From NCBI GenBank assembly GCA_946413265.1, contig CAMKJU010000007.1:296-64295 (forward strand): 64,000 nucleotides of DNA, read 5' to 3'. The DNA is from an uncultured Lentisphaerota bacterium. Its GTDB lineage: Bacteria; Verrucomicrobiota; Kiritimatiellia; RFP12; UBA1067. The position numbers were made by a program, and so were the translations under genes. Shown here piece by piece: positions 1 through 20,475 of this stretch (positions are counted from its first letter, which is position 1; each line of letters begins with the position of its first letter). The notes below the pieces were generated by a model. It had not been told where the DNA came from. It did not search any database and was given only the letters and a program-made list of their open reading frames with translations.

Positions 1-670
1 CTTTCACCCTGCACACAATAATGTAGAGATGACTGCGATTGCCCTTCAGCAGGTCGTCCGCAACATGCTGCGCGTCCTCTCCGTCGAGGACAGCGCGGAC
101 GAACACATCCCTGTCGCGGTCGCTAACGCCATATTCGCCGCAGACAAGGTCCACCATCTCCCGGACGGCCTGGCGGCGGATCTTCTCGCTCAGGCGCTCG
201 ATCGGCGATTGGGCGTCCTGGTTCCGGACCTCCTCCCTCGCCACCAGGTACTGGGTCTGACGCCGGATGTTACGCAGACGCTCCGCGCGGTGGCGCTCGC
301 CGAGCGTACGGTCGGCAAGCGTCGCCGAGTATGCGTCGCGCAGCTCCTTGTGCGTATTGCCGGCCCACGCCCACTTTGCCTCGCGCTCGTTCCTGTGGCT
401 CAGAAAAGAACGCGCGTGCATCTGGACAAACCCGACCCACTGGGCCTCCGTCTTAGGTTCAAGCTCCTCCTCAAGGCGATGGTCGGGGTCAAGCCCTGCA
501 ATCTTTATGACCGCACTCTGAACGGCGTCTTCGCAATCCTGCCTGTTACCCGACCGCCAAAGCGAGTTGACGATCTTGGGGCCGTGCTTCCGAAGGAGCG
601 TGCCCCATTCCCCGAGCGTGGGGATGTACGCGATGCTGTCGCTTGCTGCGTGTGTATGCTTGCTTGTCAT
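1..670 (-). CDS. sigma-70 family (ECF-like) sigma factor-like protein; 3' end runs off the window start
   Basis: Not in the ORF track because the window edge truncates it. My translation from the ATG at 668-670 is open to position 1. It reads MTSKHTHAASDSIAYIPTLGEWGTLLRKHGPKIVNSLWRSGNRQDCEDAVQSAVIKIAG (region-2-like) and ends VSDRDRDVFVRAVLDGEDAQHVADDLLKGNRSHLYIIVCRVK (region-4 HTH-like). Track ORF 29..748 (+) is its antisense shadow. Confidence 0.5.
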   Translation of the reverse strand, partial: MTSKHTHAASDSIAYIPTLGEWGTLLRKHGPKIVNSLWRSGNRQDCEDAVQSAVIKIAGLDPDHRLEEELEPKTEAQWVGFVQMHARSFLSHRNEREAKWAWAGNTHKELRDAYSATLADRTLGERHRAERLRNIRRQTQYLVAREEVRNQDAQSPIERLSEKIRRQAVREMVDLVCGEYGVSDRDRDVFVRAVLDGEDAQHVADDLLKGNRSHLYIIVCRVK

Positions 671-941: not shown

Positions 942-993
942 TGAACGTGCGTCAATGGTAGAGAGGTTTTGCAATTGCATCAGGAGACAACTC

Positions 994-2889
994 ATGGAAA
1001 AGAAGTCTATCAAGAAAAACATTCTAATCTCTTATTTCGGATACGAGCATGACCAGCTTGAATACAAGATGCAAGACAGGACATTCCTCGCCTCGTTCGG
1101 AAAAGACGCCAAGGCGAAGGGGTATCTCTCGCGCCTGAGTCCGAAAGACATCAAACGGACTGACATCTGGCGGCCTTCTGTCGCGCTCGCTTCCTACCCT
1201 GATCTGAAGTTCGACGATTACTATCTCCTCTACAGCGGCCTCAGGGGCCCCATGCGGAGAACCTTTGACGAGGTCGTAGAAGACATCAAGGCCCTACGGC
1301 CCAAGGTGAACCTGCACATAGAGGAGATGGCATTCAAATCGCCTTGGGACATGGTGAGCGTGTTCACGAACCTGTATAAGTTTGCCGAAGCCCATGCATC
1401 GGAATTCAGTGCAGAAGGTACCATGTGTTATGTGAACTGCAACCACGGCACAATGCAGATCAGAGAATCCCTTTTCATGCTCAGCCAGGAAGGCAAGATA
1501 CCCGGCATGCGAATATTGCCGTCCCCATGGCACGACAATACAAAACGCGACTATCGAACCCCGGTGGGAAGCTATGCGAAGGACGATCCGTCGGACTTCA
1601 ATGAAGCCTATCGCAAGTTGTCAATAGCCACGAAAAGGCAGGCTAAGAACAACGGGCTCATGGAGGGAATCTTCGTCGACAAGAGCAACACGGAATTCTT
1701 GGAGCTCCTCAACCAGATATTCTTCGTGGCGCAAAGAACAAAGGAACCGATACTCTTCACAGGCCCCACAGGTAGCGGGAAGTCGAACCTCGCCAGGAAC
1801 ATAGCAAAAACAAAGGGATTGAAAGACAAATTCGTATCCGTCAACTGCGCGACATTGGGTGGTGACCCGGGAATCATCAAAAGCGAGCTATTTGGCCACG
1901 ACAGGGGCGACTTCACGGGCGCGATCAGCACGTGCGACGGAAAACTGCAACAGGCCAACGGGGGGATTCTCTTCCTCGACGAGATTGCCGAGCTTCCCCT
2001 CGACTCCCAGGCGATGCTCCTGACGGCCATCGAAACCAAGAAGTTTAGGCGTCCGCATTCGACGGTGGACATACAATGCGACTTCATGCTCATCTGCGGC
2101 ACCAACAAGGATCTGTGGGAAGAAGTCAAGGCCAAGCGGTTCCGCCTGGATCTGCTGGAACGCATCAATACCTGGCATTTCCACCTCCCCGGCCTCGCGG
2201 AAAAAGAACGCCCCGGCTATGCCGCAAGACGGAAAGACATCGCCCTCAATTGCCAGCAAGTATTGAGTGAGTACAATAAAAAGTATTCCTCGCATCTTGA
2301 ATTTGCAAACGACGCATTACAACGTTTCATCGAATATGCAGAAGCCGACACCACCGAGTGGAAAGGCAACTTCCGGGAGTTCAACGCCATGATCTTCAGG
2401 ATGGCGACATTCGCAAACGGTCTTCAGATTGAGCTGAAAGGCGTCGAAAAGGAAATCGAACGCACCGAGTTTGAACTAAAATCATACAAGACCGACAGCA
2501 ACGTTACGGCAATAGCGACCGATGCCCCTCCTGCGGCAACGAAACAAGAGGAATTTCCAACCGCGTCGCAAACCATTAATACGCCCGACCCAACCTCTCC
2601 CCTTCCCGACGCATCCTGCAAATTCGAGTTCCTGCGCGAACTGCTTGGCGAGAAGTACGCCGAGCTCCGCCTGGACGAACTCGCCCAACTTGCCTTCGTC
2701 GCCTCGGTCTGCGCGGACGCGAAGAACCAGGCGGACGCCAGCCGGCGCCTCCGCATCAACCAGAGTGACGCAAAGGACGGTTCCCCACAGCTCTTCAAGT
2801 ACCTGTACCATTTGGGTTTGAACTTCGACAAGGTCAAGTCCTTTGCGCGCGGGTTCAAGCCCTCTGATTCGTCTCAAGTGCGCAGATAG
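994..2889 (+). CDS. rtcR: RtcR-family sigma-54-dependent transcriptional regulator (CARF-like N-domain + AAA+ + C-terminal HTH)
   Basis: AGGAGA RBS 7 nt before the ATG at 994. The N-domain matches the E. coli RtcR pattern (WRPSV..., SPWDMVSVF, NCNHGTMQI). AAA+ Walker A GPTGSGKS, Walker B GGILFLDEI, sigma-54 contact loop GDFTGA (nt 1906-1923). The C-terminal segments WKGNFREFNAMIFRMATFA and ...LFKYLYHLGLNFDKV parallel RtcR WRGNFRELSASVTRMATFA and ...LRKYLARFGLTWEAV. Confidence 0.75.
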   Translation: MEKKSIKKNILISYFGYEHDQLEYKMQDRTFLASFGKDAKAKGYLSRLSPKDIKRTDIWRPSVALASYPDLKFDDYYLLYSGLRGPMRRTFDEVVEDIKALRPKVNLHIEEMAFKSPWDMVSVFTNLYKFAEAHASEFSAEGTMCYVNCNHGTMQIRESLFMLSQEGKIPGMRILPSPWHDNTKRDYRTPVGSYAKDDPSDFNEAYRKLSIATKRQAKNNGLMEGIFVDKSNTEFLELLNQIFFVAQRTKEPILFTGPTGSGKSNLARNIAKTKGLKDKFVSVNCATLGGDPGIIKSELFGHDRGDFTGAISTCDGKLQQANGGILFLDEIAELPLDSQAMLLTAIETKKFRRPHSTVDIQCDFMLICGTNKDLWEEVKAKRFRLDLLERINTWHFHLPGLAEKERPGYAARRKDIALNCQQVLSEYNKKYSSHLEFANDALQRFIEYAEADTTEWKGNFREFNAMIFRMATFANGLQIELKGVEKEIERTEFELKSYKTDSNVTAIATDAPPAATKQEEFPTASQTINTPDPTSPLPDASCKFEFLRELLGEKYAELRLDELAQLAFVASVCADAKNQADASRRLRINQSDAKDGSPQLFKYLYHLGLNFDKVKSFARGFKPSDSSQVRR

Positions 2890-4517
2890 TAGCGCGCGTC
2901 GCCCTTCGATGTTGCACCGAATGGGTGATAGAGTGCCGGACGGAGGCGGGGCAACACATCCGCCAGACATTCATCCGCCGCATGCAGCACCTCCTCAATC
3001 TGCGTCCCGCGTCGGTACTTGTTCGAGGCCTCGTTGTAGCCGAAGTAATCCATCAGCATGGCCAATTCGCCCGGCTTCGGTTCACGACCGTCCGCCGAGA
3101 GCCGGAGGAGTACCATTCCCCGCAGGAGCTCTATGGCAAGCCGCCGGTGCGACAGCGTGTGCCGCCAAATCTGGTCGACGCATACACGCAGATTGACCGA
3201 AAGGGCCGGAACCACCCGGTCGCCGTCACGCAGGAAACAGGAAATCGCCGTCACCCGATCAAGGCTCGTGCCGAAGCCCTTGTTGAGATGGATGGCACAG
3301 GGGGCGGGAACGCCGTCCCAGCAGACCGCATGCGCCGCCTCACGGAAGCGCGCAAGCGCGTCGTAGATGCCTCCGAACTCAGCGTAATACGATTTCTCCT
3401 CGTTCTCGGCCCGCTCAAGGCGCTCGAGCTTACGCGCGAACTTCAGAGGTGCGACCCTCGCCGCACGCCGGAACTCGCTTTTCCGCGCCGCACGATCATT
3501 TTTCTCACGCGCATCCATCCGACGAAGCGTCTCCTTCAGCGTCTGTTCAATCGCCTCCGTGCCGTCCGTCAGCGCCAACCAGCACCCCTGCTGCCACCGG
3601 AAGGCGTTGCGTGGGGGCGCCACGCGCTCGAAGAGGTAGCTCGAATTCGCGCTCTGCACGATGTTGCAGGCCGCCTTCCCGGGGGCGCGACGCAGACCGC
3701 GTCCGCACATCTGGATTGTCGGCAGACGCGAGGCGTCGCGCGCGAAGATGCTTGATACGTCGGGCTGGTCGAATCCCTCCGTGAGCATCGCCACGTTCGC
3801 GACCACCTGCACGCGGCCGCTCGCAAAGGCATCGATCTGGCTCTCCTTGTCGCTCTCGCCCGTCACCACCTCGCACGCCACGCCGCCTGCGGCGAGGCGT
3901 TCGCGAAACGCCACACATTCGGCAATCGTCGAGAAGAACACGAGGCTTTTCCCCCAGCGCTTGGGGTCCGCCAGGTAGAAATCCGCAGCCGTGGCCACGC
4001 TGTAGTTCGGAATGACGTATGTATTGAACGGGCTAAGGTACCCTTCCCGCACGAGGCGGCCGATGGAACACGTGCGCACCGTCTCCTGGAAGGAGAGCTT
4101 CATGCGGTCCGTCCGCATGGGCGTGGCCGAGAGGCCGATCGTCCACCTGGCGCGCATCCGCTCGTAGAGGAGCACGCAGCTCTGTGTCGCCTCATGGTGG
4201 GCCTCGTCGAGGACGACGAGATCCACCTCCGGCGGTACCTTCTCGAAAAGCGAGACGGGGCGGATGTTATCCTGGTAGAGGTCCCGGTTCGCCTCCATCA
4301 TCTGGCGCAGCAGATGATGGCGCGGCGCCACCCAGCCGACCTTGATTGGACGCCCCAGATGCTCCTGGAAACGATGGATCACCTCCAGGGCCATGTACGT
4401 CTTACCCGAGCCGACAGGCGATTCAAGCAGGACGGAGGTGCGTCCCCGTTCCGCGAACGCGGCCAGCGCCTCCTTGATAGCCTCCTGCTGGTAGGGTCTC
4501 TCTTCGTAACGCGTCAC
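2874..4517 (-). CDS. SF2 DEAD/DEAH-box helicase (ResIII + helicase C) with a C-terminal extension of about 230 aa of unknown function
   Basis: GTG start 1 nt after the stop of the upstream gene (TAAgGTG). Motif I SPVGSGKT, motif II VLDEAHH, motif III GLSATP, motif VI QMCGRGLRR. The N-terminal 51 codons of track ORF 2874..4670 are R/S/T-rich overlap and were discarded. Confidence 0.8.
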   Translation of the reverse strand: MTRYEERPYQQEAIKEALAAFAERGRTSVLLESPVGSGKTYMALEVIHRFQEHLGRPIKVGWVAPRHHLLRQMMEANRDLYQDNIRPVSLFEKVPPEVDLVVLDEAHHEATQSCVLLYERMRARWTIGLSATPMRTDRMKLSFQETVRTCSIGRLVREGYLSPFNTYVIPNYSVATAADFYLADPKRWGKSLVFFSTIAECVAFRERLAAGGVACEVVTGESDKESQIDAFASGRVQVVANVAMLTEGFDQPDVSSIFARDASRLPTIQMCGRGLRRAPGKAACNIVQSANSSYLFERVAPPRNAFRWQQGCWLALTDGTEAIEQTLKETLRRMDAREKNDRAARKSEFRRAARVAPLKFARKLERLERAENEEKSYYAEFGGIYDALARFREAAHAVCWDGVPAPCAIHLNKGFGTSLDRVTAISCFLRDGDRVVPALSVNLRVCVDQIWRHTLSHRRLAIELLRGMVLLRLSADGREPKPGELAMLMDYFGYNEASNKYRRGTQIEEVLHAADECLADVLPRLRPALYHPFGATSKGDARYYLRT

Positions 4518-4518
4518 C

Positions 4519-5604
4519 TTACGCGGCCTCCTGCGAGAAGTTGATGCCGCCGAGGTAGAAGTTGCTGGTCCGGACCGCGTTCGGATAGAGGTCCTCGAGG
4601 TCGAAGTCCTTGGACAGCACCGTCCCCGCGAAGGAATGGAGCGTGGATTCGGGCTTGAGCAGCTCCGCATGGTGCGAGGCGAGCTCCGAGGCGAAGTTGA
4701 GGAGGTCGGCCACGCTGCACCCCACGGGCAGGAGCGGACGCTTCTTCTGTCCGATGTTCGTGAGGTCCGTCACGCCGTAGCGTACGCACGGGTTATCGGC
4801 GATTTCGTTCAGCCGCTCGCGGAGGAGCATCTGGTTGCGCGTGTTCGCCACCGAACGGCGGATCAGCCCATCCAGCAGCAAGACCTCGCCCACCGACGCC
4901 TTCGTGCCGGCCGCGGTGCACATGCGTTCCTGCAGCATCTCGACGCCGGACGGGTTGCTGAAGGACGCCAGCAGGCGACGGAAATGCTCGCCGCTGTTGT
5001 CCTTGATTTCCATCTTCGTGCGGAACAGCGGCGCCTCCGCCACTGCGCCGTTCGAGCAAATCTGCCGCCATGTGGCGAGACTCATGTCGGGCATGCCCAC
5101 GCCGTCCACGGGTACGCGACAACGCACGCGCACGTGGTAGGTGCTGTCGTTCGGCACGTCCCACGGGTCGTCGAGGTCGAGCATCGCGCTCAGCATGCCG
5201 TTGCCATATTCGACCTCCTGCAGGCGGCGGTCCTCGTGCAGGACGCCCTCAATGAATTTCACGGGCATGGGCAGGCCCTTGTCCTGCGTCAGACCCAGTG
5301 CCTGGTTCCGTTCCGTATCGACCGTCACGCGGAGCGCCAGATCGGACTCCTTCTCGGCCGCGCGCGTCATCACCTCTAGCGGTGTGAAGAACCCGAACAC
5401 GCCAAAGGGAATCCCCAGTTCGGCGGCAAGGGTCTTGTAGAACCGGTCGCTCAGTTTGTAAGTTGTCTGCCCGATAGAAAGACCTTTAATCTTCTCATCG
5501 TCGCAGTCCAGAGCCTCCACCATACGGCGAGGCGTAATGGGAATCGGCTCAAAACGATCGCCGATTCGCGAATTCATGTCGATTTTTTCTGTTTTTACTG
5601 CCAT
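4519..5604 (-). CDS. DUF932-like (phage/plasmid-like) protein
   Basis: ATG at 5604 with GGAG upstream; the track ORF begins at a TTG at 5655. The segment HVRVRCRVPVDGVGMPDMSLATWRQICSNGAV resembles the DUF932 core (R-x-[IV]-C-x-N-G) as I recall it. Translationally coupled to the helicase. Confidence 0.45.
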   Translation of the reverse strand: MAVKTEKIDMNSRIGDRFEPIPITPRRMVEALDCDDEKIKGLSIGQTTYKLSDRFYKTLAAELGIPFGVFGFFTPLEVMTRAAEKESDLALRVTVDTERNQALGLTQDKGLPMPVKFIEGVLHEDRRLQEVEYGNGMLSAMLDLDDPWDVPNDSTYHVRVRCRVPVDGVGMPDMSLATWRQICSNGAVAEAPLFRTKMEIKDNSGEHFRRLLASFSNPSGVEMLQERMCTAAGTKASVGEVLLLDGLIRRSVANTRNQMLLRERLNEIADNPCVRYGVTDLTNIGQKKRPLLPVGCSVADLLNFASELASHHAELLKPESTLHSFAGTVLSKDFDLEDLYPNAVRTSNFYLGGINFSQEAA

Positions 5605-5683
5605 GGCTTTATAATCTCCATAAACAGAAACCGTATGCACAGCACTATCTTTCAAGTTTTCTGAATTTTTTTGAATAAGTTTA

Positions 5684-5776
5684 TTGCTTTCGCTATTGGG
5701 AGTTTTGGAGTCTTGGAGTTTTCTTTAAATACTCTCCTTAACTCCGAAACTCCTAATCTCCCAATAGCGAAAGCAA
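5684..5776 (-). repeat. about 95-nt imperfect hairpin element, copy 2
   Basis: On the minus strand it reads TTGCTTTCGCTATTGGGAGATTAGGAGTTTCGGAGTT...AACTCCAAGACTCCAAAACTCCCAATAGCGAAAGCAA. It is collinear with copy 1 and lies between the sigma-54-like gene and the DUF932-like gene. Confidence 0.8.
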
Positions 5777-5797
5777 GAAAGGTTTTGTAACTGGTTC

Positions 5798-6559
5798 TTA
5801 GGTGAAAACGCTGGCCAAAGGTAGCGAAGCATATCCCCATGACAGACGACAATTCTGGCAATAGGCGTGGATATTCCCCGTGTCTGCCTTTTTCGACGTT
5901 TCTGCCTTCTTAGAACGAAAGTTGGCGCAGAAATCTGACGTAACAAAGCCCGTCTGCGTCATTGTTTTGTGATTCTCTCTAAACGCCGCCGGACTTTCAA
6001 GGGCCTCATCCCCTTCACTCTGCAGCCACTTCGCCACAGCCTCGTAGAACGCAAACTGCTTGCGAACGGCTTCAAGAATCTTGTGTGCCTCCGAATCAAA
6101 ACCATTTGGGCGATATCCCAACAGCGGGTTGCGGGGCGGAATACACGCCCATCGCCCCGATGCCGTCTCGACAATCCTGATCTCGTAGCCACGCAGAATG
6201 GAATCTAGCGGTGATGCCTCCTCGCCGTTCGGTGCCGCATACGCGCCAGAAGAATCGTCCTCATCCCGGATTTCGTCGTCATCAATGAAATCCACCTCCG
6301 AGTCGTAATCCTCCTCGGCAGCATCCGCAATTTCAGTAAAAACTTCTTCTTCCACGTCAGTCTCGACAACGATCTGGAAACTGGCGATCATCGCCTGCAA
6401 AATCTGTACTTGAGTGGCACAATCCGCGCGCAAAAACGTCGATGCCTGTATCCGTGTGGACAGTTCGACCTTGGCTTCCAGCTCATGTCTGGTGGAGACG
6501 TCCATTCGATTGGACTGCTGCATGATTGTCGCCATCTGCAATCCATAACCTAAAGCCAT
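5798..6559 (-). CDS. acidic 253-aa protein, possible divergent or truncated sigma-54 (RpoN)-like factor
   Basis: ATG 2 nt after the RNAP stop (TGActATG). Q/L-rich N-terminus, an acidic tract EEEVFTEIADAAEEDYDSEVDFIDDDEIRDEDD, then segments that by eye parallel sigma-54 region III up to but not including the RpoN box. The upstream part of track ORF 5798..6745 overlaps the RNAP gene and was discarded. Confidence 0.55.
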   Translation of the reverse strand: MALGYGLQMATIMQQSNRMDVSTRHELEAKVELSTRIQASTFLRADCATQVQILQAMIASFQIVVETDVEEEVFTEIADAAEEDYDSEVDFIDDDEIRDEDDSSGAYAAPNGEEASPLDSILRGYEIRIVETASGRWACIPPRNPLLGYRPNGFDSEAHKILEAVRKQFAFYEAVAKWLQSEGDEALESPAAFRENHKTMTQTGFVTSDFCANFRSKKAETSKKADTGNIHAYCQNCRLSWGYASLPLASVFT

Positions 6560-6561
6560 AG

Positions 6562-9500
6562 TCACTCTCCCACTGCGAAACTGTTGAACATCACCTGCGC
6601 CGACGGCGAGGACAGCGGGATGTCCCGCATTTCGCCACTCAGTAATTTCAAGATCGTCTCCTTGTTTGCACGGCGCGCGACCGATTCCATGTCCTTGCCT
6701 TCGTCCACTTTCTTCAACGCGCCGTTGAGGGATTTTGTCCCGCAATCAGCGAGAACGCGCCACAAGAGCTGGACATGCCGCGGATCCAGATCACGGTACG
6801 GAGTTATCGCGCCGTCCTCCCCGCACAGACATTTGTAGAATTCATCGTATGTTTTAGCCTTCTTACCGCTCAGGATGAGCGCGCGCACGAACTCGATGTC
6901 CACTTGGCTCTTCCCCGCATGGGCGCTCTTCATCGAAAGTTGCGTGCCGCGTTCGCCGATCGACTGCGCGGCGATCAATCCCGCCGGATACCCAACTTCT
7001 GGCAAAGTGCCGTCCGACAAAGCCCCGTAGCACGCCGCGCAGATGCCAGTTTCGCAACCACAGTTGAGTATCGAACGCTTGCCGCCATCCGGTGTCTTGC
7101 ACTTCTTGCACGTAATCGTCACTGGACGCAGGGCATAGACAAGACAACGCGTGAGATCGCCCGCCTTGCCGGTGTTGAGCTTCTTGTCGCACATCGAAGC
7201 GCGAGCGTTGAACGACGACCAGAAGATGTCCTCCCACGACATGCCGCCGACGAGCGAGCCCTGAATATCGAATTTCCGTTTCACCTCTTCGGACGGCACA
7301 AACCCCAGCTTGCCGGTCGCAAGTAGACCGCGAGGATTCGTGAACTGTTTGATCTGCTTTGCACCATTTGCCCCTGAGTTGACCATATCCGCCGCGAAAC
7401 CGTTTTTCCCGTCATACACCACAAGGTCGTAGTAACCGAACGAGACGCCCTCTTCCGTACATTTCGCGAACGCCGCACGCGCATCCTTCAAGACGGATTC
7501 GGCTTCGCCCTGTTTACAATGCTCTTCCAATCGCTTCTTCGCGGCACCGGAATCGCGCGCGCAGACGAGATATGCGCCCATCACGAAGTCTCGGTCGTAA
7601 TTCGGGGTGATCTGTCCGTTCCCCGCCGAAAAGAGATTCGCGGACGGCGCCAGACGCGGCAGCGCCTCCTGTGCAGCGTCGGAAAGCGGCAGGTAACCAG
7701 CCATCTCGTCGCCGTCAAAATCGGCCCCGAACCCCTTGCATGAAAGCGGCTGCAAACGGAATACCTCGCCGTCTGCGGGCTTCAGGACCTTTACCTTGAA
7801 GGTCTGCATGCTGTATTTGTGAAGAGACGGCTGACGGTTCATGAGCATCCAAAGCGGATGTTTTTCCAGGTACTCCTTCAGCGCATCCCATTTCTCTGTG
7901 AGCCGTTTTTTCGAGCTTTCCTTAGGCGAGCGCCAGCCGAACCCCGCTGCCGTCACACCATGCGCCGTCACACGCAGGTCCACGCTCTGTGGCTTCCCTT
8001 CGACCTTGATCCGCTCATCGGTGACGCGGTCCGCCAGAAGCTCCCAGAGGATGGACGCCGGAACGCCGACCTCGTCGAACGCGAGATCCGGCCCCGGCGT
8101 GATCACCATACGACACGAACGGTCCACGCGCCGCCCTAGTCCCTCCCGCCTCACGAGCCCGTGTTTCCCGCAGCACGCATCACGCAAAACCTGAAACACG
8201 GTCGCGACAGCCTTCTCGATCTGCGTCAACGCCTTCGCCTTGTCTTCTTCCTTCGCCTTGGCATACCGGTCGCACGCGGCGACAATCTCCCCGTACCCGA
8301 ACGGATCTACCTCGCCTTCGTATCCCACGCGGTACCTGATCGGCAGGACGGGGACGTAGCGCAACTTCGGCTGGTCGTGCAAGTTCTTGCCCGTCAATGC
8401 TTTCGCGGGATAGTCGATCGGCTCCGGCAATTCGATCACGCCCCACTTTTCTTCTTCAGCGCACACGAATGCCTCGTTAAGCGAACCGAACATCGCCGGA
8501 TCGCACACGCCTCCTTCGGCCATCTCGTTTTGCTCATTTGCAGCCTTGAGAAGGAACCGCTCGCCCGGCTTACTCGCACTACACAATTCGCACGGACACA
8601 GCACGAGCGCGTCTCCGATGCTTTCCGCCTGCTTGTCCGACGTCTTGAGGCACATCCTCCGAAGTACCTCGCCCGCATTCACCTTCCTTTTGATGAAACA
8701 ACGCACATCGCCCACGCCGTCAATGCCAAGTGCAGAAGTCTTCACCTCCAACGACAAAGTTGTGGCCGAGCCCCCTTTTGTTCCCCAAATCGGCAGTACC
8801 TCTAGGCAATCCTCCCGACTGGGACAACGGGCGTCTCGCCCGTTGCAGGCACCCGAAACGCGCATCCAATAATTGCCATTGCTTTCTTCCAGCGGTCCCT
8901 TGATCGTTACGCCAAAAAGTGACAGCAACGACGCAAGGCTCAGCGTATTCCGCTTGTCGCCCCCATTCCACGTAAAACGCATTCCACCGAACGCAAGCCG
9001 TGCGGAATCCTTCGGACAGCGGAACTGTGCCGAATGGACCGCCACCGCAGACGCCTTTCCGATTGTCCGACCCTTGCGATCCTGTTCCTCCTTGAGGCCA
9101 ATCCGTTTGAGCAGTTCGTTATCCGACATCCGCGAAAACGACACTGTCTTCTTTTTCGCGTTGACATCCATCCTGATCAGCATGGCCGCAAGATAGGCGG
9201 ACAGGACTTGGGAAAATCCAGTCTGGTCGAGTGCGGGCTTGCCCGTCCCCTTGACGGCGACGGCATCGGAGTTGCGAAGAAGGTCCGCGATGATCGGTTC
9301 CGATCCGGGATAGGCCGAAAGCGCCCACATTTCCATTTCGCCCACGCGCTGTCCGCCGCCAATGAGCCGCCCGTGCGCGGCCTGTCCCGTGGCGCAGGAA
9401 TACAATGCGTCCTTCCCGCCACGACGCGCCTGCGCTTTCAACGCGGGGATGTGGTGGAGGCGGAAGAAATGCTGGTACCCCACCACGACGGGCGATGCCG

Positions 9501-11523
9501 TTGTAACCTTGCGTCCGTCGGGCAGCGTCCAGTGCAGATATGCCTTGCCATATTCGTCGAGTCCCGTCTCTTTGAGCAGACGCTGGACCTTCTCGTGGTC
9601 GAGCGCGCCGCAACATGGCGCACCCGCCGGTCCGGACGCCCCGTCCTTCAGCACGTCCGCATCTGTCTTTCCGTTGTGGAACAACCATCCCAAATGAGTC
9701 TCCAGCAGCTGACCGGGGTTCATGCGCGAGAGGACGCCATGCGGGTTCAAGAGAATGTCAACCGTCACTGTCATGCCATCGGGAAGCTTCAGTTTCGGCA
9801 TTTCCTTCGCAGGCAACACCTTGGAGACGACGCCCTTGTTGCCGTGGCGTCCCATCAACTTGTCACCCGGCTCTAGGGCGAACGTGCGCGCAATGCGGTA
9901 CTCCAGGCGGCCTACGAATCCCGGATCGCGGTTGAGCGGCTTCTCCTTGATTTCAGGCGGGTATTCAATCTGCACGAGCTTCGCGGGGGCGGCGTCGAAA
10001 TACCGGATCGTATGGGTCTGTTCCTTGCCGTTCGCAATCTTCTTGAATTCCGCAATGGCCGTACCCTCACGCAGAGGTGCCCCCGCCGAGAGGATTTTGG
10101 TACACGTCCAGCCCGGATCAATGTCGAGCGCGTAGTCCTTCTCTTCAGTAACGGCCATTTCTTTCACGATTGCGTCGCTCACCACGACCGCGTCGTCGAG
10201 GTTCCAGCCATACCAGGGGATGTACGCGACAAGCAGGTCGCGACCGATCTTCAGCTCGCCGCCGTCCGAGCATGTCGGACACAACCCCGCGCGCTCCAGC
10301 GGGCGCATGAATTCAACAAGCCCCTCTTCGCCGCCAGACATCACGCGCGGCGCTTCCGCCCCGCTCACGGGCACGCCCTGGCGCATGTTCTTCGCGCCCA
10401 TCATGCTGCGCGCGTCGTCGTTGTGGTTCAGGAACGGAATCAGCGACGTGCACCAGCTCACAGGCGGCCGCGATGGTAGGGCCGCCTCGCCGAGGCGGCC
10501 GCTCTTCGCATTAATCTGTCCCTTCGCATCCACCCACGCCCCACGCGCGAGTTGTAGTTGGATGCCCACCATCTCGGACTCGGGGCTCTCGATCGGGCAG
10601 ATTCGTCCTTCAAACGAGGGATGGTTCTGCCGGAATTCGGCGGGCAGGAACCCAACGTGGCTTCGGCTCATCTTGAAGCGCTTGATGCCGCAGATGCGTC
10701 CAGCCGCCTCAAGAATGTTGTCCGGACGGATGACGTCAAACCCGTTGAATCGCCGTTCACCGATCGACGAAATAGGCACAAGCTCCGCAGCCAAATCACT
10801 CCAGCTATCTCGCGTTCCATTCTTCAAGACAAAGAAACGATAGTAGAGTCGAAGAAGGCGATTGCGCAGCCAAACCGGAAACGTCACCGCCATGCGGTGG
10901 TCCAAGTCATCGGCATCAAATGTTTCTATCTTGTCCTGATTCGCCTGCGCCCATTCCTTCAGATCCAAGTTCAGATCTTGCAGCGATGTGGCAAGGCCGC
11001 CCCGGCCTTGCAGCAAGGGCGAGGGCGCCCTTGCCACACCGGGCTTTCCAACCACCTCATTTGCCCACCAATGGGCGAAGGCTATTTCGTACCGGTCAGA
11101 CTTTGAGAGCTTTTCGTCACCGATGCGGATGAAGCGTCCGTCCGGCAACCCCAGACGAAGCTCCAGCTCCTTGCCATTGGGCACGCGCACCTTGCGCAGA
11201 CCCGGCATCTCGCCGAGCCAGGAGCTCCAGACAAGACGCTGGGGCGCGTCCTTGTTTTCGGCGCCGGCGCCGCGCGTCACGAATATGCCATGGTACGGGA
11301 GGGGAATGTCAAACTCTTGCGTGTCGCCGTCCGTAAAGGATATGCAGAACCGCCCCGTGAGGTCCAAGTTCTTCGCATACGCGAATTTCGCATCTTCAGC
11401 AGCGGGGAGGATGAGACTGACCTCATCCACCTCCGACGACACATTCCTGACGCATTCCGTAGCAGAGTTATTCCACGATTCAAGCGTCTCCGCATCGTCG
11501 TCTTTGAACATCAGCCAATTCAT
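6562..11523 (-). CDS. single-chain fused beta-beta' multisubunit-type RNA polymerase (compact, 1653 aa)
   Basis: Beta motifs: GRICPIESPESEMVG, SLIPFLNHNDDARSMMGAKNMRQGVP, GDKLMGRHGNKGVVSK, VDILLNPHGVLSRMNPGQLLETHLG, GGGQRVGEMEMWAL. These are followed by beta' motifs: GRRVDRSCRMVITPGP, NRQPSLHKYSMQ, catalytic GADFDGDEMA (nt 7699-7728), and AAQSIGERGTQLSMKSAH. ATG at 11523; the track uses a TTG at 11529. Confidence 0.9.
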   Translation of the reverse strand: MNWLMFKDDDAETLESWNNSATECVRNVSSEVDEVSLILPAAEDAKFAYAKNLDLTGRFCISFTDGDTQEFDIPLPYHGIFVTRGAGAENKDAPQRLVWSSWLGEMPGLRKVRVPNGKELELRLGLPDGRFIRIGDEKLSKSDRYEIAFAHWWANEVVGKPGVARAPSPLLQGRGGLATSLQDLNLDLKEWAQANQDKIETFDADDLDHRMAVTFPVWLRNRLLRLYYRFFVLKNGTRDSWSDLAAELVPISSIGERRFNGFDVIRPDNILEAAGRICGIKRFKMSRSHVGFLPAEFRQNHPSFEGRICPIESPESEMVGIQLQLARGAWVDAKGQINAKSGRLGEAALPSRPPVSWCTSLIPFLNHNDDARSMMGAKNMRQGVPVSGAEAPRVMSGGEEGLVEFMRPLERAGLCPTCSDGGELKIGRDLLVAYIPWYGWNLDDAVVVSDAIVKEMAVTEEKDYALDIDPGWTCTKILSAGAPLREGTAIAEFKKIANGKEQTHTIRYFDAAPAKLVQIEYPPEIKEKPLNRDPGFVGRLEYRIARTFALEPGDKLMGRHGNKGVVSKVLPAKEMPKLKLPDGMTVTVDILLNPHGVLSRMNPGQLLETHLGWLFHNGKTDADVLKDGASGPAGAPCCGALDHEKVQRLLKETGLDEYGKAYLHWTLPDGRKVTTASPVVVGYQHFFRLHHIPALKAQARRGGKDALYSCATGQAAHGRLIGGGQRVGEMEMWALSAYPGSEPIIADLLRNSDAVAVKGTGKPALDQTGFSQVLSAYLAAMLIRMDVNAKKKTVSFSRMSDNELLKRIGLKEEQDRKGRTIGKASAVAVHSAQFRCPKDSARLAFGGMRFTWNGGDKRNTLSLASLLSLFGVTIKGPLEESNGNYWMRVSGACNGRDARCPSREDCLEVLPIWGTKGGSATTLSLEVKTSALGIDGVGDVRCFIKRKVNAGEVLRRMCLKTSDKQAESIGDALVLCPCELCSASKPGERFLLKAANEQNEMAEGGVCDPAMFGSLNEAFVCAEEEKWGVIELPEPIDYPAKALTGKNLHDQPKLRYVPVLPIRYRVGYEGEVDPFGYGEIVAACDRYAKAKEEDKAKALTQIEKAVATVFQVLRDACCGKHGLVRREGLGRRVDRSCRMVITPGPDLAFDEVGVPASILWELLADRVTDERIKVEGKPQSVDLRVTAHGVTAAGFGWRSPKESSKKRLTEKWDALKEYLEKHPLWMLMNRQPSLHKYSMQTFKVKVLKPADGEVFRLQPLSCKGFGADFDGDEMAGYLPLSDAAQEALPRLAPSANLFSAGNGQITPNYDRDFVMGAYLVCARDSGAAKKRLEEHCKQGEAESVLKDARAAFAKCTEEGVSFGYYDLVVYDGKNGFAADMVNSGANGAKQIKQFTNPRGLLATGKLGFVPSEEVKRKFDIQGSLVGGMSWEDIFWSSFNARASMCDKKLNTGKAGDLTRCLVYALRPVTITCKKCKTPDGGKRSILNCGCETGICAACYGALSDGTLPEVGYPAGLIAAQSIGERGTQLSMKSAHAGKSQVDIEFVRALILSGKKAKTYDEFYKCLCGEDGAITPYRDLDPRHVQLLWRVLADCGTKSLNGALKKVDEGKDMESVARRANKETILKLLSGEMRDIPLSSPSAQVMFNSFAVGE

Positions 11524-11525
11524 GA

Positions 11526-12776
11526 TCAAATCCGTGTCAGCAGTTGGAGCGAACCTACTATTGCACCGAGAACGAAGCCCAGCACCTGGACGGCACAGAG
11601 ATTTTCGGACATGAACTCGTCAAGCGTCTGGTGAAATGTCGCGATGGACATGCCGTCAACAGCTTCCGTGACGCGCTGTTCAAGCCGGAGCTTGTCAAGA
11701 ATCGCCTGCTTGTTCTCGCCGATGAGCTGGGCGACCTTCACGCCGACCTTTGGCAGCACTCCCTTCTCAAGCTTTTCGCGCAGCATGTCAGAGGCGAATG
11801 CACGGTCGATGAGCACGGGAACATTCTCGCGGAGATACGTAGCAATGTAACGCTTGCCGCGCACCCTCATCTCACGGATAATTCCGCCCATCACCTTCTG
11901 TCCCTCTTCGCCTTTCATCCACAGAGTGAGCTGGTCCGCGTATGCGAGAAGCTTCTCCCTCAACATCGTCTGAGTTGCCTCGCGCACCAGCCATCCGTCC
12001 AGCTTGGCCTTCATGCTCTCATAATCGGCAAAGTTTTCCATGACATAGTCCGTAATCGCATTCGCGCCTATGCCAAACGGGATCTTCTCGTTCAGTTTCT
12101 GCCGTAGGAAGGTGCGCAATTCACCGCGCACCTCCTCGATGATTCCGCCCGCGTTTTCACGAAGTGCCTCAACCAGCTTTTCAACTATGAACCGCCGGGA
12201 TCCCTCGCTTTTGATTCGCGGCAGGATTCCCTCGTTCCATATCTTCGACCAGGTATCATCCGTTGCCAGACTGTCAATGACGGCAAGGACCTGACGTTCC
12301 ACGTACGGCGACACGAACTCGACGATCTCGGCTTCATGCTCAACAAGATACCGTTGAATCCAGTCGCGGAGCTGAGTCATCCGCCGCGTGTCGTTCACAA
12401 ACGCCAGCACCTCACCCTTCATCTCCTCGACGAGCGCATCAGGATTCAGAAGTTTCTTCCCGACCATGTTGCCGAGCGAGACGGCCATTTCGCGTTTCTG
12501 CCTCGGGATAATCCCCTGGATGCGTCCGCCAAGATGTGGCTCGTACGGTCTGAACAGATACCAAAGCGCCAGCCAGTTCGTAATGTATCCGACGGCTCCC
12601 GCAAGCAATATCGGCATAAACCAGCCAAGATACCGGTCAATACCCGCCGCCGTCTCCACAGAAATCAGCAGCCGCGCCACCACATATACGACCTCCAGGC
12701 CCAGCACTATCCAGCTGAACCGGTTAAAAAACCTATCCCATGTTTTCCACGCATCCATTTTACTTTTCGTCTTCAT
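11526..12776 (-). CDS. DUF445/UPF0754-family membrane protein
   Basis: GAVGYITNWLALWYLFRPYEPHLGGRIQGIIPRQKREMAVSLGNMV matches the YheB/UPF0754 signature as I recall it. There are N- and C-terminal TM segments. The stop TGA lies 2 nt before the RNAP ATG. The start was chosen at MKTKSK with an AGAGGAAG RBS. Confidence 0.65.
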   Translation of the reverse strand: MKTKSKMDAWKTWDRFFNRFSWIVLGLEVVYVVARLLISVETAAGIDRYLGWFMPILLAGAVGYITNWLALWYLFRPYEPHLGGRIQGIIPRQKREMAVSLGNMVGKKLLNPDALVEEMKGEVLAFVNDTRRMTQLRDWIQRYLVEHEAEIVEFVSPYVERQVLAVIDSLATDDTWSKIWNEGILPRIKSEGSRRFIVEKLVEALRENAGGIIEEVRGELRTFLRQKLNEKIPFGIGANAITDYVMENFADYESMKAKLDGWLVREATQTMLREKLLAYADQLTLWMKGEEGQKVMGGIIREMRVRGKRYIATYLRENVPVLIDRAFASDMLREKLEKGVLPKVGVKVAQLIGENKQAILDKLRLEQRVTEAVDGMSIATFHQTLDEFMSENLCAVQVLGFVLGAIVGSLQLLTRI

Positions 12777-12817
12777 GTTCTTCCTCTTGTGCCACCTTGC
12801 CAAAGCGCAACGCCGAC

Positions 12818-12826
12818 AGTATAGCA
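12818..12826 (-). promoter_or_regulatory. extended -10 promoter candidate (TGCTATACT) for the DUF445-RNAP operon
   Basis: Minus strand TTTTGCTATACT, about 35 nt upstream of the ATG at 12776. The same motif precedes aroE and the DJ-1 gene. Confidence 0.4.
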
Positions 12827-12868
12827 AAAATCGGCTGGCTCATGGGGAGTTTTTCGGCCCGGAAATCT

Positions 12869-13048
12869 TTATGTCCATCCTAGGATTTCCGACAAAGTCG
12901 TAATGCCATAACGCGACTTCAGTTGCGTCCGTACCTTTTCCAGTGCCTTCTTCTCAATCTGCCGCACCCGCTCGCGGGATATACCCAACAATTCAGCGGT
13001 TTCACTCAACGTGTGCGTCACACCATATCCAGTCTTGCTTTCACCCAT
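12869..13048 (-). CDS. stand-alone sigma-70 region-4 (HTH) miniprotein, 59 aa
   Basis: Not in the track (59 aa). AGGAAG RBS before the ATG at 13048. Translation: MGESKTGYGVTHTLSETAELLGISRERVRQIEKKALEKVRTQLKSRYGITTLSEILGWT. The core LSETAELLGISRERVRQIEKKALEKVR is a near-consensus sigma-70 region 4.2. Confidence 0.6.
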   Translation of the reverse strand: MGESKTGYGVTHTLSETAELLGISRERVRQIEKKALEKVRTQLKSRYGITTLSEILGWT

Positions 13049-13200
13049 TTCTTAACTTCCTTTCTCGGACAATTTTCACAACCCTCAAAAACAATAAACG
13101 CTACAGATGCGACAAACTCGCATCTGCACAAAAAAAACACGGAAGATTTATCCGCGCACCATAGCAGAATTCTGGCTGGGGCGAACCGAGTGCGCCTCAC

Positions 13201-13284: not shown

Positions 13285-13938
13285 TCACAGCATGCGCAAA
13301 AACGCTTCGCGGCTTGACATCGCCTCTTCCAATTTTCCGGTCCTGCAGAGCGAGACGTAAAACGCCGCAGCAGCAGCCTGGCAGTTGATCTGTCTGTTCG
13401 GATTGAACTCGATGTCAGTGAATGCGTCGAATTCCCTCAGCTCCTCGGCCAGCTTCGGATTGGCGAGCAGCGCCTTGATGTAGAGATGATAGAAGAATGC
13501 CGTCTTCGGCTCGAGATCCCACCGGACTCCATCAAGTTCGAAGGCGAGAAGGCGATGTCCGGCGGACGCTTCCTGGACATGGTGGCCATGGTGGCGGACT
13601 TCACGCGAATCGTGGGAGTAGAGTTCCGGGAACGGGCCAACCCCGCCGTCGAACACCTTGCTCGCCTGAAACACCGACTCCACGGAGCACTCGACTCCGC
13701 CGTGCGGAAACTTCAGGTTGAAGGCGCTCAAACTCACGCCGAGCGGCTGCAGCGACTTGCTTGAAATCTCAAGCACCTTCGCCGACGGATCGATCCTGTG
13801 GATGGCGTCGTGCAGGGCAACGACGTTTTTCTGCTTCTGCGAAAAAGCGAATCCAGGATGCCAAGTGAACTCAGGAGACTCCACGGTCCTGTATCCGACA
13901 TATCTCTCCAACGGTCTGTAACAAGGTCTTTTCGCCAT
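13285..13938 (-). CDS. conserved-looking hypothetical protein (217 aa), function unknown
   Basis: AAGGAA RBS before the ATG at 13938. Non-repetitive sequence with motifs FTWHPGFAFSQKQKNVVALH, SVESVFQASKVF and FTDIEFNPNRQINCQAAAA. I cannot assign a family. Confidence 0.6.
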   Translation of the reverse strand: MAKRPCYRPLERYVGYRTVESPEFTWHPGFAFSQKQKNVVALHDAIHRIDPSAKVLEISSKSLQPLGVSLSAFNLKFPHGGVECSVESVFQASKVFDGGVGPFPELYSHDSREVRHHGHHVQEASAGHRLLAFELDGVRWDLEPKTAFFYHLYIKALLANPKLAEELREFDAFTDIEFNPNRQINCQAAAAAFYVSLCRTGKLEEAMSSREAFLRML

Positions 13939-13992
13939 ACTGTTTTCCTTTCTTTTGTTGTTTGTTCTTGTTGCCTCTGTCAATATTAAACA

Positions 13993-14459
13993 TCAAGGTG
14001 TCGTATTTCTTTCACAGGCGTTGAACATCTGCCAGAGGTTGTTCGCGAGCTGCATGAGCAGGTAGAAGTTCCTGCTGCACCGCCAGTGGTTGCAGAACAC
14101 GTGCTCAAGCCCGTAGTCGTTGTTCTTCTCGACGTCGAAGCTCGACTCAACGTTCCACCTGCGCCGCCCCCATTCCACGACCTCCGACGCCACCTCCGGG
14201 CAGCCGACGTCGTAGTTCGTGGCGAACATCCCGCGGCATGTCCCCCCTTCGTCTCCTCGCAGGCGACGACGTTGAACTCCTCGCCTTCGGACTGGGTCGT
14301 GAACTTCACTCCGCCCGTCCACGCCACGACGCCGGTCTCGGTCTTCCGCTGGTTCTCGCCCCTCGCGACGAGAGGCCCGCAGCAGCCCTTCGAGACCTCC
14401 ATCGAGTCGCACGCCATCTCGTACGCGTCCGGGGAGCGTCCCTCCTTCGGGGAAGTCAA
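13993..14459 (-). pseudogene. IS4/IS701-type DDE transposase remnant (C-terminal fragment, frameshifted)
   Basis: ...EVVEWGRRRWNVESSFDVEKNNDYGLEHVFCNHWRCSRNFYLLMQLANNLWQMF is a typical DDE_Tnp C-terminus. The upstream part continues in another frame (track ORFs 13993..14412 and 13986..14459). No N-terminal half and no inverted repeats were seen. Confidence 0.6.
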
Positions 14460-20399: not shown

Positions 20400-20475
20400 G
20401 TAGAGCATATTGATTCCGAACAATTCACAGGCGTTTGCCCAAAAGCGTATTCATTGCCACTAATGCAAATTGTCC

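Follow-up and report, generated by a model that had tools for sequence, protein, structure and literature searches.

A compact single-chain RNA polymerase with a sigma-54-like factor and an AAA+ ATPase: a putative self-contained transcription module in an uncultured Kiritimatiellia bacterium

Bacteria are taught as having one multisubunit RNA polymerase (RNAP), whose transcription programmes are changed by swapping sigma factors. Why, then, would the chromosome of an uncultured Lentisphaerota bacterium of the class Kiritimatiellia encode a second enzyme of the same evolutionary type on one compact chain, and what might this enzyme be for? The question is raised by a gene on the minus strand of the stretch of DNA analysed here—the window, 64,000 nucleotides (nt) of contig CAMKJU010000007.1 of assembly GCA_946413265.1—which a first-pass annotation had described as a compact β-β′ RNAP of probably non-housekeeping function. 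A chromosomal second polymerase of this type would change the one-RNAP picture. By its sequence relationships, the gene is part of what looks like a new, previously undescribed transcription machine, self-contained and switchable, that consists of the compact polymerase, its own sigma-54-like factor, and its own AAA+ ATPase. The parts of this module are all of known kinds; it is the architecture that is unexpected.

The compact polymerase

The gene and the segments of its product are laid out as follows (the domain matches are from Pfam).

6562–11523, minus strand: compact single-chain β-β′ RNA polymerase gene, 1653 amino acids plus stop
7699–7728, minus strand: catalytic loop G-ADFDGDEM-A, with three invariant Mg-binding Asp residues
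Residues ~1–770: β-like half of the polymerase
Residues ~770–1060: linker/clamp region
Residues ~1060–1653: β′-like half
Residues 295–327: Rpb2_3
Residues 539–719: Rpb2_6, E=2.7e-39
Residues 723–758: Rpb2_7
Residues 1130–1286: Rpb1_2, E=1.9e-26
Residues 1427–1537: Rpb1_5, the bridge helix/trigger loop region, E=6.6e-15

The open reading frame (ORF) is uninterrupted—it spans 6562–11529 on the minus strand with 1655 residues if counted from a TTG, and comes to 1653 residues from the ATG at 11523—and database protein P0001 matches these 1653 residues over the full length at 100% identity. All ten motifs that the first-pass annotation had quoted are read at their places in the window translation: GRICPIESPESEMVG, SLIPFLNHNDDARSMMGAKNMRQ, GDKLMGRHGNKGV, NPHGVLSRMNPGQLLETHLG, GGGQRVGEMEMWAL, GRRVDRSCRMVITPGP, NRQPSLHK, GADFDGDEMA, the bridge-helix stretch, and GERGTQLSMKSAH. 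The Pfam domains follow one another on the single chain in the order β, then β′, which upholds the annotation as a compact single-chain β-β′ enzyme. Both double-psi barrels and the Mg site had been proposed to be intact, and the alignments agree, with strong Rpb2_6 and Rpb1_2 matches and catalytic residues that are invariant among homologues rather than disrupted. For the β-type barrel, the lysines of GDK...RHGNKG (residues 553–564) and the motif GGQRxGEME (722–735) are invariant in 24–43 homologues; for the β′-type barrel, the same holds for the Mg triad of ADFDGDEM and for NRQPSLH across the homologue alignments. The bridge-helix LTR..V and trigger-loop GERGTQL.M...H motifs are conserved in the family alignment.

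Scored with NCBIfam models, the polymerase is nearer to bacterial rpoB (229 bits) and rpoC (197 bits) than to archaeal B (~96 bits) and A′ (~93 bits), which upholds the proposed descent from bacterial RNAP. The equivalog models for fused housekeeping β/β′ give 287 bits vs a cut-off of 4632. How much of the bacterial core is left is answered differently by domain models and by structure prediction. The Pfam protrusion, lobe, external, clamp-core, pore, and funnel domains (Rpb2_1/2/45 and Rpb1_1/3/4) are undetected in the window polymerase, in keeping with the earlier proposal that many peripheral domains have been lost. However, an AlphaFold2 (AF2) model of residues 1–1200, built from a 43-sequence alignment (pLDDT 78.4, pTM 0.64), spans nearly the whole bacterial β chain, and this part of the proposal does not hold in full. 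The top Foldseek matches of the model are bacterial β chains over ~1080–1130 columns (E=6e-37, TM 0.41–0.46); viral matches are weaker, the best being second-largest subunits of nucleocytoplasmic large DNA viruses (NCLDV) and jumbo phages (E 2e-27 vs 6e-37 for bacterial β).

The same model places a helical hairpin at residues 1077–1117, directly before GLGRRVDRS and thus at the position of the β′ clamp helices. In bacterial RNAP, these helices are the main dock for sigma. A loss of the sigma-docking surface, which had likewise been suspected, is hence not borne out: a clamp-helix-like hairpin is present, and the locus encodes its own sigma-54-like factor. Because the model aligns along bacterial β and contains this hairpin, the ORF is best described, by sequence and predicted fold, as a trimmed bacterial-type RNAP core rather than a bare pair of barrels.

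In a protein search, this domain set recurs in ~65 clusters (at 90% identity), 1570–1930 residues long and from 93% down to 34% identical. Those members that carry a name are "hypothetical proteins" of Kiritimatiellae or of unclassified metagenome-assembled genomes of the Kiritimatiellia/Verrucomicrobiota type. A scan of GTDB genomes with the pattern DFDGDEM is dominated by archaeal rpoB/rpoA′ and contains two true family members (L005 and L006). ADFDGDEM, NRQPSLH, GDKLMxRHGNKG, GGGQRxGEME, and the bridge-helix and trigger-loop residues are invariant or nearly so in the 24- and 43-member alignments. As these homologues share 34–45% identity, the invariance of the motifs goes far beyond chance and speaks for purifying selection. 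The rarity of the family (~65 clusters), its variable, conflict-type neighbours, and the presence in the window of Mfd all support the view, already taken in the first-pass annotation, that the enzyme is non-housekeeping. Mfd requires a canonical β. Judged on these sequence features, the window polymerase is almost certainly not the housekeeping enzyme of its host.

Two features go beyond what had been annotated: obligate partner genes, treated below, and a change in the catalytic loop. The Asn of the universal NADFDGD motif is replaced by Gly in the window (G1266, codon 7726–7728), and all 24 members of an unbiased retrieval have Gly or Ala at this position. This Asn is the equivalent of E. 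coli β′ N458, which contacts the ribose of the incoming nucleoside triphosphate (NTP). The family keeps the Arg equivalent to R425 throughout, as it does the β Lys residues and the Met and His of the trigger loop. From the alignment, the family-wide loss of the Asn may relax sugar discrimination of the incoming nucleotide, which raises the question of what nucleotides these enzymes accept.

Several proteins at the margin of the family were noted alongside. P0062 carries a fused NUDIX domain (1930 residues), and P0056 and P0065 are 1887 and 2180 residues long with extra regions. P0068–P0079 are fused β-β′ proteins of ~2240–2330 residues in which no Pfam domain is missing—a Patescibacteria group bacterium is given as the source of one—and seem to represent a housekeeping fusion that is compact and differs from the Helicobacter/Wolbachia type. 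Nine metagenome contigs (L097, L107, L121, L127, L131, L150, L155, L157, and L159) encode F-[GA]-ADFDGDEM in ORFs of ~500–1430 residues with family-profile scores below 120; these may be further divergent, non-canonical RNAP lineages in which the Asn is also lost.

A three-gene module

Two genes near the polymerase recur with it.

5798–6559, minus strand: 253-residue partner protein, its ATG 2 nt past the polymerase stop
955–2889, plus strand: RtcR-type enhancer-binding-protein homologue with a CARF/RtcR N-terminal domain, a Sigma54_activat AAA+ domain with a GDFTGA loop, and a C-terminal helix-turn-helix (HTH); convergent to the polymerase operon

Profiles of the polymerase, the small protein, and the AAA+ ATPase were run over 84 loci, 63 of which contain a family polymerase. 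Contigs with distant homologues (34–40% identity) show a uniform layout of polymerase, a 220–350-residue protein without Pfam match, and a Sigma54_activat AAA+ protein. The small protein lies directly 3′ of the polymerase on the same strand, overlapping it or separated by a gap of a few bases, in 50 of the 52 loci with at least 900 nt downstream, and the AAA+ gene adjoins in 36 loci. An all-vs-all clustering of neighbours finds the trio as the only recurrent set (61, 54, and 36 loci); the next family reaches 7 loci.

The loci come in two forms. In type A, which includes the window, a convergent RtcR-type ATPase of ~600–670 residues with CARF-AAA+-HTH architecture accompanies a small protein of 215–258 residues. 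In type B, a short ATPase of 430–520 residues without CARF or HTH is co-directional and often overlapping, and the small protein has 314–379 residues. A tree of the polymerase catalytic region splits type A from type B. The polymerase tree hence tracks the partner architecture, which implies that the three genes co-evolve as a unit, and we regard it as very probable that they form one functional unit with an active polymerase.

The ATPase belongs to the sigma-54 activators by its AAA+ domain. The window protein matches Pfam RtcR (5e-18) and Sigma54_activat (2e-42), as well as the PADLOC model RtcR--CARF_AAA_HTH (2e-112, positions 18–522 of 523), and Walker A and B are invariant across both types. 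In classical activators, the L1 loop, which contacts sigma-54, is almost invariably GAFTGA. Here it reads GDFTGA in the window, GAASGI or GAATGI in other type A loci, and GAYTGG, GAYTDG, or GNYTGG in type B; the canonical form is found in one locus only. Short type B ATPases stop right after the AAA+ lid and thus bear no DNA-binding domain, which suits a dedicated remodeller more than an enhancer-binding regulator of the classical kind.

The small protein is the least familiar part. It consists of N-terminal helices, an acidic tract (DYDSEVDFIDDDEIRDEDD), and a C-terminal half (residues 153–253) with homology to the extra-long helix and HTH (ELH-HTH) of sigma-54. In RpoN, the ELH-HTH is the reader of the −12 promoter element. 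Among 1.84e9 representative proteins searched exhaustively by profile, 46 relatives were found, all of 73–365 residues apart from one spurious, repetitive match of 1147 residues; by sequence, the family is thus best seen as an orphan tied to the compact-polymerase system. A likeness of the tail to the sigma-54 HTH is visible by eye, and the relationship emerges with the depth of the profiles. A 29-sequence partner alignment compared by hhalign with E. coli RpoN—a sequence that in a search of the Protein Data Bank (PDB) matched chain 9mse_M end to end with 1040.9 bits—gives E=0.071, and a 49-sequence alignment gives E=0.01 over 79 columns. Compared with a sigma-54 alignment of eight diverse rpoN genes from annotated plasmid records plus E. 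coli RpoN, the match reaches a probability of 84.4% and E=7.1e-6 over 87 columns, partner residues 153–253 corresponding to RpoN 321–407. The score of this match is 50.7; reversed profiles score 11.7, forty column shuffles at most 21.7, and two unrelated alignments 11.9 and 19.3. Type B long forms alone give E=6.8e-5 vs sigma-54, and a permissive alignment setting extends the match to RpoN 229–474.

Scans of the 49 individual members stay below threshold and point the same way: Pfam Sigma54_DBD (best E=0.0027, P0234 residues 104–190 vs profile 7–89) and NCBIfam rpoN_sigma (TIGR02395, best E=0.017) each hit 2 of the 49 members and are the most frequent non-compositional families in the respective library scans. 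Tested against Sigma54_CBD and at the Pfam and NCBIfam thresholds, the window partner has no match at E≤10, and the best member reaches 17.9 bits vs a gathering cut-off of 22.8; the window partner also ends before any equivalent of the RpoN box. From these comparisons, the partner is most plausibly a truncated, highly divergent sigma-54 relative that keeps the ELH-HTH and adds a private N-terminal region and an acidic linker.

Around the trio, the neighbours vary and are of conflict type: NUDIX, PARG, ADP-ribosylglycohydrolase, GmrSD, TCAD9, CYTH, ThiF/JAB, and NYN proteins across the loci, and NADAR in the window. Three type B loci (L003, L086, and L085) share an upstream block of genes for ~450, 250, 259, and 430 residues, the last a response-receiver protein, followed by a variable 884-residue protein or TCAD9 giant and then by IU-nucleoside-hydrolase or CYTH directly before the polymerase. 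This block hints at a larger system in that subtype. At 19035–22098 of the type A locus L001, a few kb from the module, lie genes for a 723-residue HTH_GRAD plus GreA/GreB protein and a DksA/TraR zinc-finger protein—both secondary-channel-type factors, which may be coincidence.

Candidate promoters and the rest of the window locus

If the small protein is a promoter-reading factor, sites for it might be found near the module. Two motif forms are candidates.

Type B: TTTGTGAGTTGCAT-N11-13-ATG
Type A: TTTTCTGTATTGCA

Across 660 kb of family loci, the type B motif (TGTG[AG][AG]TTGC; extended, tTTGTGAGTTGCAt) has 20 copies where base composition predicts 4.6 (Poisson P ~1e-7); this corresponds to 30 per Mb vs 6 per Mb in non-family loci, these controls being mostly archaeal. 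With 18 copies on the polymerase strand and 2 on the opposite one, it is strand-biased (binomial p=4e-4). Its positions are biased as well. In four loci (L086, L136, L006, and L118), it lies at most 40 nt upstream of the polymerase start, in three of them as TTGCA-N11-12-ATG. A second site is found between the AAA+ gene and the next variable gene, 2365–2420 nt past the polymerase stop, in L086, L003, L117, L152, and L160. The genes that follow the motif encode an NYN RNase in L086 (after the AAA+ gene), a SprT-like metalloprotease in L116 (Pfam 5e-15; 3375 nt past the polymerase stop), and otherwise proteins without Pfam match.

In a type A subclade (L001, L087, L125, and L138), TTTTCTGTATTGC[AT] occurs on the polymerase strand 2690–2835 nt past the polymerase stop. 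This places it just beyond the 5′ end of the convergent rtcR, from which it is divergent, and 4–50 nt before ORFs of 116–320 residues; L087 and L125 carry a second copy before an ORF of ~207 residues. Both motifs end in TTGC(A/T) and bear no fixed −24 GG. TTGC(A/T) is the sigma-54 −12 consensus. On sequence grounds, such an ending without −24 GG matches a factor that has retained the −12 reader.

Canonical sigma-54 promoters were considered and rejected: TGGCAC-N5-TTGCW with up to two mismatches gives 15 matches in the window vs 27 expected, and upstream of the polymerase in 61 loci this promoter motif shows no enrichment. What precedes the type A polymerase genes of L087, L138, and L098 is a host-type extended −10, TGTGGTATAAT, from which it follows that the host enzyme probably makes the polymerase mRNA. 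The same extended −10, in the form T(G/C)TGGTATAAT, also stands before unrelated window genes (40463, 46269, 51546, 56022, and 63643, minus strand) and is apparently the standard housekeeping promoter of the window organism.

The window locus itself reads, in the direction of the polymerase: Sigma70_r4 ORF, DUF445 gene, polymerase, sigma-54-like gene, hairpin, 378-residue gene, helicase, convergent rtcR, hairpin copy, and the ORF at 2–670. The parts that remain to be introduced are given here by coordinate.

2–670, minus strand: conserved ~210-residue gene, running off the left window edge; divergent from rtcR and on the polymerase strand
836–948: hairpin copy 1, ~105 nt, between rtcR and the ~210-residue gene; polymerase-strand start ...GTTCATTGCTTTCGC
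2874–5655, minus strand: accessory pair of a 378-residue protein without Pfam match (4519–5655) and a ResIII/DEAD helicase (2874–4670)
5679–5783: hairpin copy 2, ~105 nt, between the sigma-54-like and 378-residue genes; folding free energy (dG) −52 kcal/mol, z = −8.9
11526–12827, minus strand: DUF445 membrane-protein gene, whose stop is 2 nt short of the ATG of the polymerase
12869–13048, minus strand: 59-residue stand-alone Sigma70_r4 protein (Pfam 1.2e-12), heading the DUF445-polymerase operon
13285–13983, minus strand: NADAR (DarT1-associated antitoxin) gene (Pfam 6e-71), no recognisable DarT alongside
13986–14459, minus strand: 157-residue ORF, by eye like a C-terminal fragment of a DDE transposase

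The ORF at 2–670 is homologous to the ~210-residue genes 3′ of the type A motif in L001 (E=1.4e-16), L125, and L087. The motif stands directly before this gene in L087 and L125, and a 116-residue ORF intervenes in L001. Its recurrence suggests that the ~210-residue gene is a fourth part conserved among type A loci. Its product gives weak hints of an ECF-sigma-like (PDB SigE, E=0.17) and of a Mor-like HTH protein. An opposing ORF on the plus strand (29–748; GC content by codon position 0.74/0.42/0.66) is probably spurious and the minus-strand gene the real one.

At the place that the TTGC motif takes in sister loci, the window carries a hairpin element, with polymerase-strand start ...TTCATTGCTTTCGC or ...TTTCTTGCTTTCGC. 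Its stem is near-perfect, with arms of TTGCTTTCGCTATTGGGAG and GGAG-N4 repeats; the two copies are the only ones in the window and bracket rtcR, the helicase, and the 378-residue gene, copy 1 being part of the 5′ leader of rtcR, where it closely follows a sigma-70-like promoter (791–819). Rfam returns only below-threshold "miRNA" matches, which are this long hairpin. L135 has the same element at the same place. As it is confined to the window and L135 and absent from 12 other loci, the hairpin was rejected as a conserved part of the system.

The homologues of the accessory pair in L001 are 81% (378-residue protein) and 72% (helicase) identical, whereas the polymerase downstream of them shares only 40% identity. 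Hence, the pair is a co-travelling module outside the universal core. DUF445 is co-transcribed with the polymerase in the window, given the 2 nt between its stop and the polymerase ATG. It was nevertheless rejected as a system part together with the Sigma70_r4 mini-ORF, since neither has homologues in the other loci; NADAR was rejected for want of a recurrent neighbour cluster. An inverted repeat, GCAGATGCGA-N5-TCGCATCTG at 13102–13128, precedes the Sigma70_r4 mini-ORF.

Mechanism, alternatives, and known systems

How might these parts work together? We lean, by no means firmly, towards a full gated mechanism of orthogonal, sigma-54-style transcription. The polymerase—a compact single chain derived from bacterial β and β′ that keeps the two double-psi barrels, bridge helix, trigger loop, lid, and clamp coiled-coil—would itself be transcribed by the host enzyme. 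The translationally coupled mini-factor, with the sigma-54 ELH-HTH kept, the recognisable core-binding domain lost, and an acidic linker, would hold the polymerase closed and inactive at TTGC(A/T) promoters, by analogy with the sigma-54 holoenzyme. The third core gene would provide a sigma-54-activator-type AAA+ ring, whose ATP hydrolysis would open the closed complex. In the window subtype, the CARF domain of RtcR would tie firing to a signal, either a nucleotide or RNA damage. The module would target adjacent genes; in the window, this would probably be the ~210-residue gene beyond rtcR, and perhaps the 378-residue/helicase pair.

Gene anatomy, conserved catalytic motifs, linkage statistics, sigma-54 homology, and an enriched motif with strand and position bias are what the sequences show; complex formation, ATP gating, promoter identity, and a role in stress or phage response are what we infer. 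The conflict-type neighbourhoods suggest a response to phage or nucleic-acid damage; this role is less certain than the mechanism, and would probably be that of a stress- or phage-response switch independent of the host polymerase. A more general picture, tentative and to our minds with slightly less than even chances, is that bacteria of the PVC (Planctomycetes-Verrucomicrobia-Chlamydiae) group and others carry a mini orthogonal machine—single-chain polymerase, mini-sigma-54, and dedicated AAA+ opener, in some versions with a CARF sensor—that would fire only on a damage or infection signal and, without the host RNAP, transcribe a small regulon of effectors and a further sigma-like factor.

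Several observations weigh against the gated mechanism. The link of the small protein to sigma-54 rests on profile–profile comparison: HMMER profile searches of PDB sequences found no sigma-54, and Pfam matches stay below threshold. AF2 models the small protein poorly (pLDDT 53) and without any Foldseek match, and comparisons of the partner N-terminus with region I and of the long-form tail with the RpoN box both fall within the shuffled score range. The strict type A and type B motifs are absent from the window. The motif could also be a host-lineage promoter—the control loci being mostly archaeal—or a recombination site that flanks the cassettes. About 5 of the 33 loci with at least 3 kb of flank have no nearby AAA+ gene, and the window RtcR keeps its HTH and a near-canonical GDFTGA loop and could thus act on host sigma-54 holoenzyme.

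Among the alternatives, the one that survives best, though we consider it unlikely, is a defence system of three genes in which the polymerase itself is an abortive-infection effector. As an inhibitor, the acidic small protein would plug the cleft, from which the AAA+ ATPase would remove it on a signal; the freed enzyme would then make RNA free of promoter control (antisense or double-stranded RNA, R-loops, NTP drain) or products with unusual sugars, leading to arrest of the infected cell. Such a system would account for the trio alone being universally conserved while its neighbours vary as in defence islands (NADAR, PARG, NUDIX, GmrSD, TCAD9, ThiF/JAB, NYN), and for the acidic, DNA-mimic-like tract of the small protein. 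A change of substrate choice through the family-wide loss of the NTP-sugar-sensing Asn and the NUDIX domain fused to P0062 would fit as well. However, the sigma-54-type DNA-reading HTH of the small protein and the strand- and position-biased motif before downstream genes fit promoter-directed transcription better, and PADLOC matches neither the polymerase nor the small protein.

Less likely still is a division of labour in which RtcR/AAA+ and the small sigma-54-like protein serve host RNAP and regulate the operon, the compact polymerase having another job—RNA-templated synthesis, priming, or repair-linked synthesis in an Rtc-like RNA-damage response. The full-length window RtcR with CARF, HTH, and GDFTGA loop would suit this role, as would neighbours of ADP-ribose or nucleic-acid repair type (NADAR, PARG, ADP-ribosylglycohydrolase, NUDIX), and two-barrel enzymes such as QDE-1 can copy RNA (PMC9508822). 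Set against this are the translational coupling of the small protein to the compact polymerase in 50 of 52 loci, its lack of a detectable core-binding domain and, in the window subtype, of an RpoN box, and the short co-directional AAA+ forms without DNA-binding domain. Moreover, canonical GG-N10-GC promoters are not enriched, and among the scanned window neighbours no RtcB or RtcA gene is found.

We give little credence to a mobile-element or prophage remnant, or cargo, whose YonO-like single-chain RNAP would serve element genes without any cellular role. Single-chain two-barrel RNAPs are indeed typical of phages and plasmids (PMC5467207, PMC7281927), the family has a patchy distribution, and a transposase fragment and repeated hairpin elements lie nearby. 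Yet the family DNA pattern F-[GA]-ADFDGDEM, found 73 times in metagenome contigs, has no match among 2.9 M viral contigs, and tblastn against 50,697 phage and 72,556 plasmid records gives only canonical rpoB/rpoC-type matches at no more than 46% query coverage and no family member. A phage or plasmid origin was rejected on the basis of this absence. The loci examined bear no phage structural or replication genes, the window is chromosomal (SMC, Mfd/TRCF with its RNAP-interacting domain, glycoside hydrolases), and the similarity to cellular β/β′ is well above that known for YonO-type enzymes. The weakest explanation is that the ORF is the housekeeping RNAP of the organism, or that rpoB and rpoC were joined artificially by a frameshift or in assembly. 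It has the β-then-β′ motif order in its favour and nothing further, and can practically be dismissed, as the ORF has no stops or frame changes, ~65 independent clusters and 61 loci drawn from many samples repeat the same architecture, the rpoB/rpoC equivalog cut-offs are missed by a wide margin, and the surroundings contain Mfd and no ribosomal-protein neighbourhood.

If the more general picture of an orthogonal machine fired by damage or infection is true, the module would contain the first cellular second multisubunit-type RNAP in bacteria, and it would be immune to phage shut-off of host transcription. This suggests an immune or stress strategy in which transcription becomes independent of the host polymerase that phages inhibit or modify. 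The module would also show, on a minimal example from nature, what is needed for a two-barrel RNAP and for ATP-dependent promoter opening of the sigma-54 type, and it would offer synthetic biology a compact three-gene, ATP-gated orthogonal expression switch.

How does this module compare with known systems? Literature searches found no description of the polymerase family or of the module, and PADLOC 2.0, without match for the polymerase or the small protein, recognises RtcR and generic helicase models only. In the domain libraries, generic RNAP models are all that the polymerase matches. Reviews of two-barrel polymerases describe single-chain forms only for phages, plasmids, and eukaryotic RNA-dependent RNA polymerases (RdRPs) (PMC7281927, PMC5467207, PMC2919709). 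QDE-1 and the eukaryotic cellular RdRPs resemble the compact family as single-chain two-barrel polymerases outside bulk transcription and in a context of genome conflict. QDE-1 is, however, very divergent (DYDGD motif) and has no sigma-like or AAA+ partner, and the compact family shows no evidence of RNA templating. The multisubunit RNAPs of jumbo phages and NCLDV are likewise reduced enzymes of the multisubunit type, but viral and split into several subunits.

The RNAPs of SPbeta (YonO), P23-45, crAss-like phages, and killer plasmids share with the compact family the single polypeptide, both double-psi barrels, and a non-housekeeping nature. YonO-type enzymes are encoded by mobile elements and very divergent in sequence, YonO having ~100 kDa (PMC5467207). 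Compared with their published description, the compact family is chromosomal, larger at ~185 kDa (calculated from 1653 residues), and accompanied by sigma-54-like and AAA+ partners; it also keeps 30–45% identity to bacterial β/β′ in the core. Fused rpoBC proteins—of Helicobacter and Wolbachia, and the ~2240-residue forms of Patescibacteria—have β and then β′ on one chain with the same catalytic motifs. In contrast to the 1653-residue window protein, they keep every Pfam domain (2240–2890 residues) and are the sole RNAP of the cell.

In its regulation, the module is comparable to the sigma-54 (RpoN) holoenzyme and its activators (RtcR-rtcBA, PspF, NtrC), with which it shares the Sigma54_activat AAA+ domain with a GAFTGA-type L1 loop, a factor with ELH-HTH, and a motif that ends in TTGC(A/T) like the −12 element. 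In the window subtype, even the divergent arrangement of rtcR and rtcBA has its counterpart, rtcR facing away from a target gene. On the other hand, the polymerase is a dedicated 1653-residue chain instead of an α2-β-β′-ω core, and the factor, at 220–350 residues, has no detectable core-binding domain and, in the window subtype, no RpoN box. The module motif is without a conserved −24 GG, the L1 loops vary (GDFTGA, GAASGI, GAYTGG), and many of the ATPases are translationally coupled to the factor and bear no DNA-binding domain—an arrangement that sets the module apart from the sigma-54 activators it otherwise resembles.

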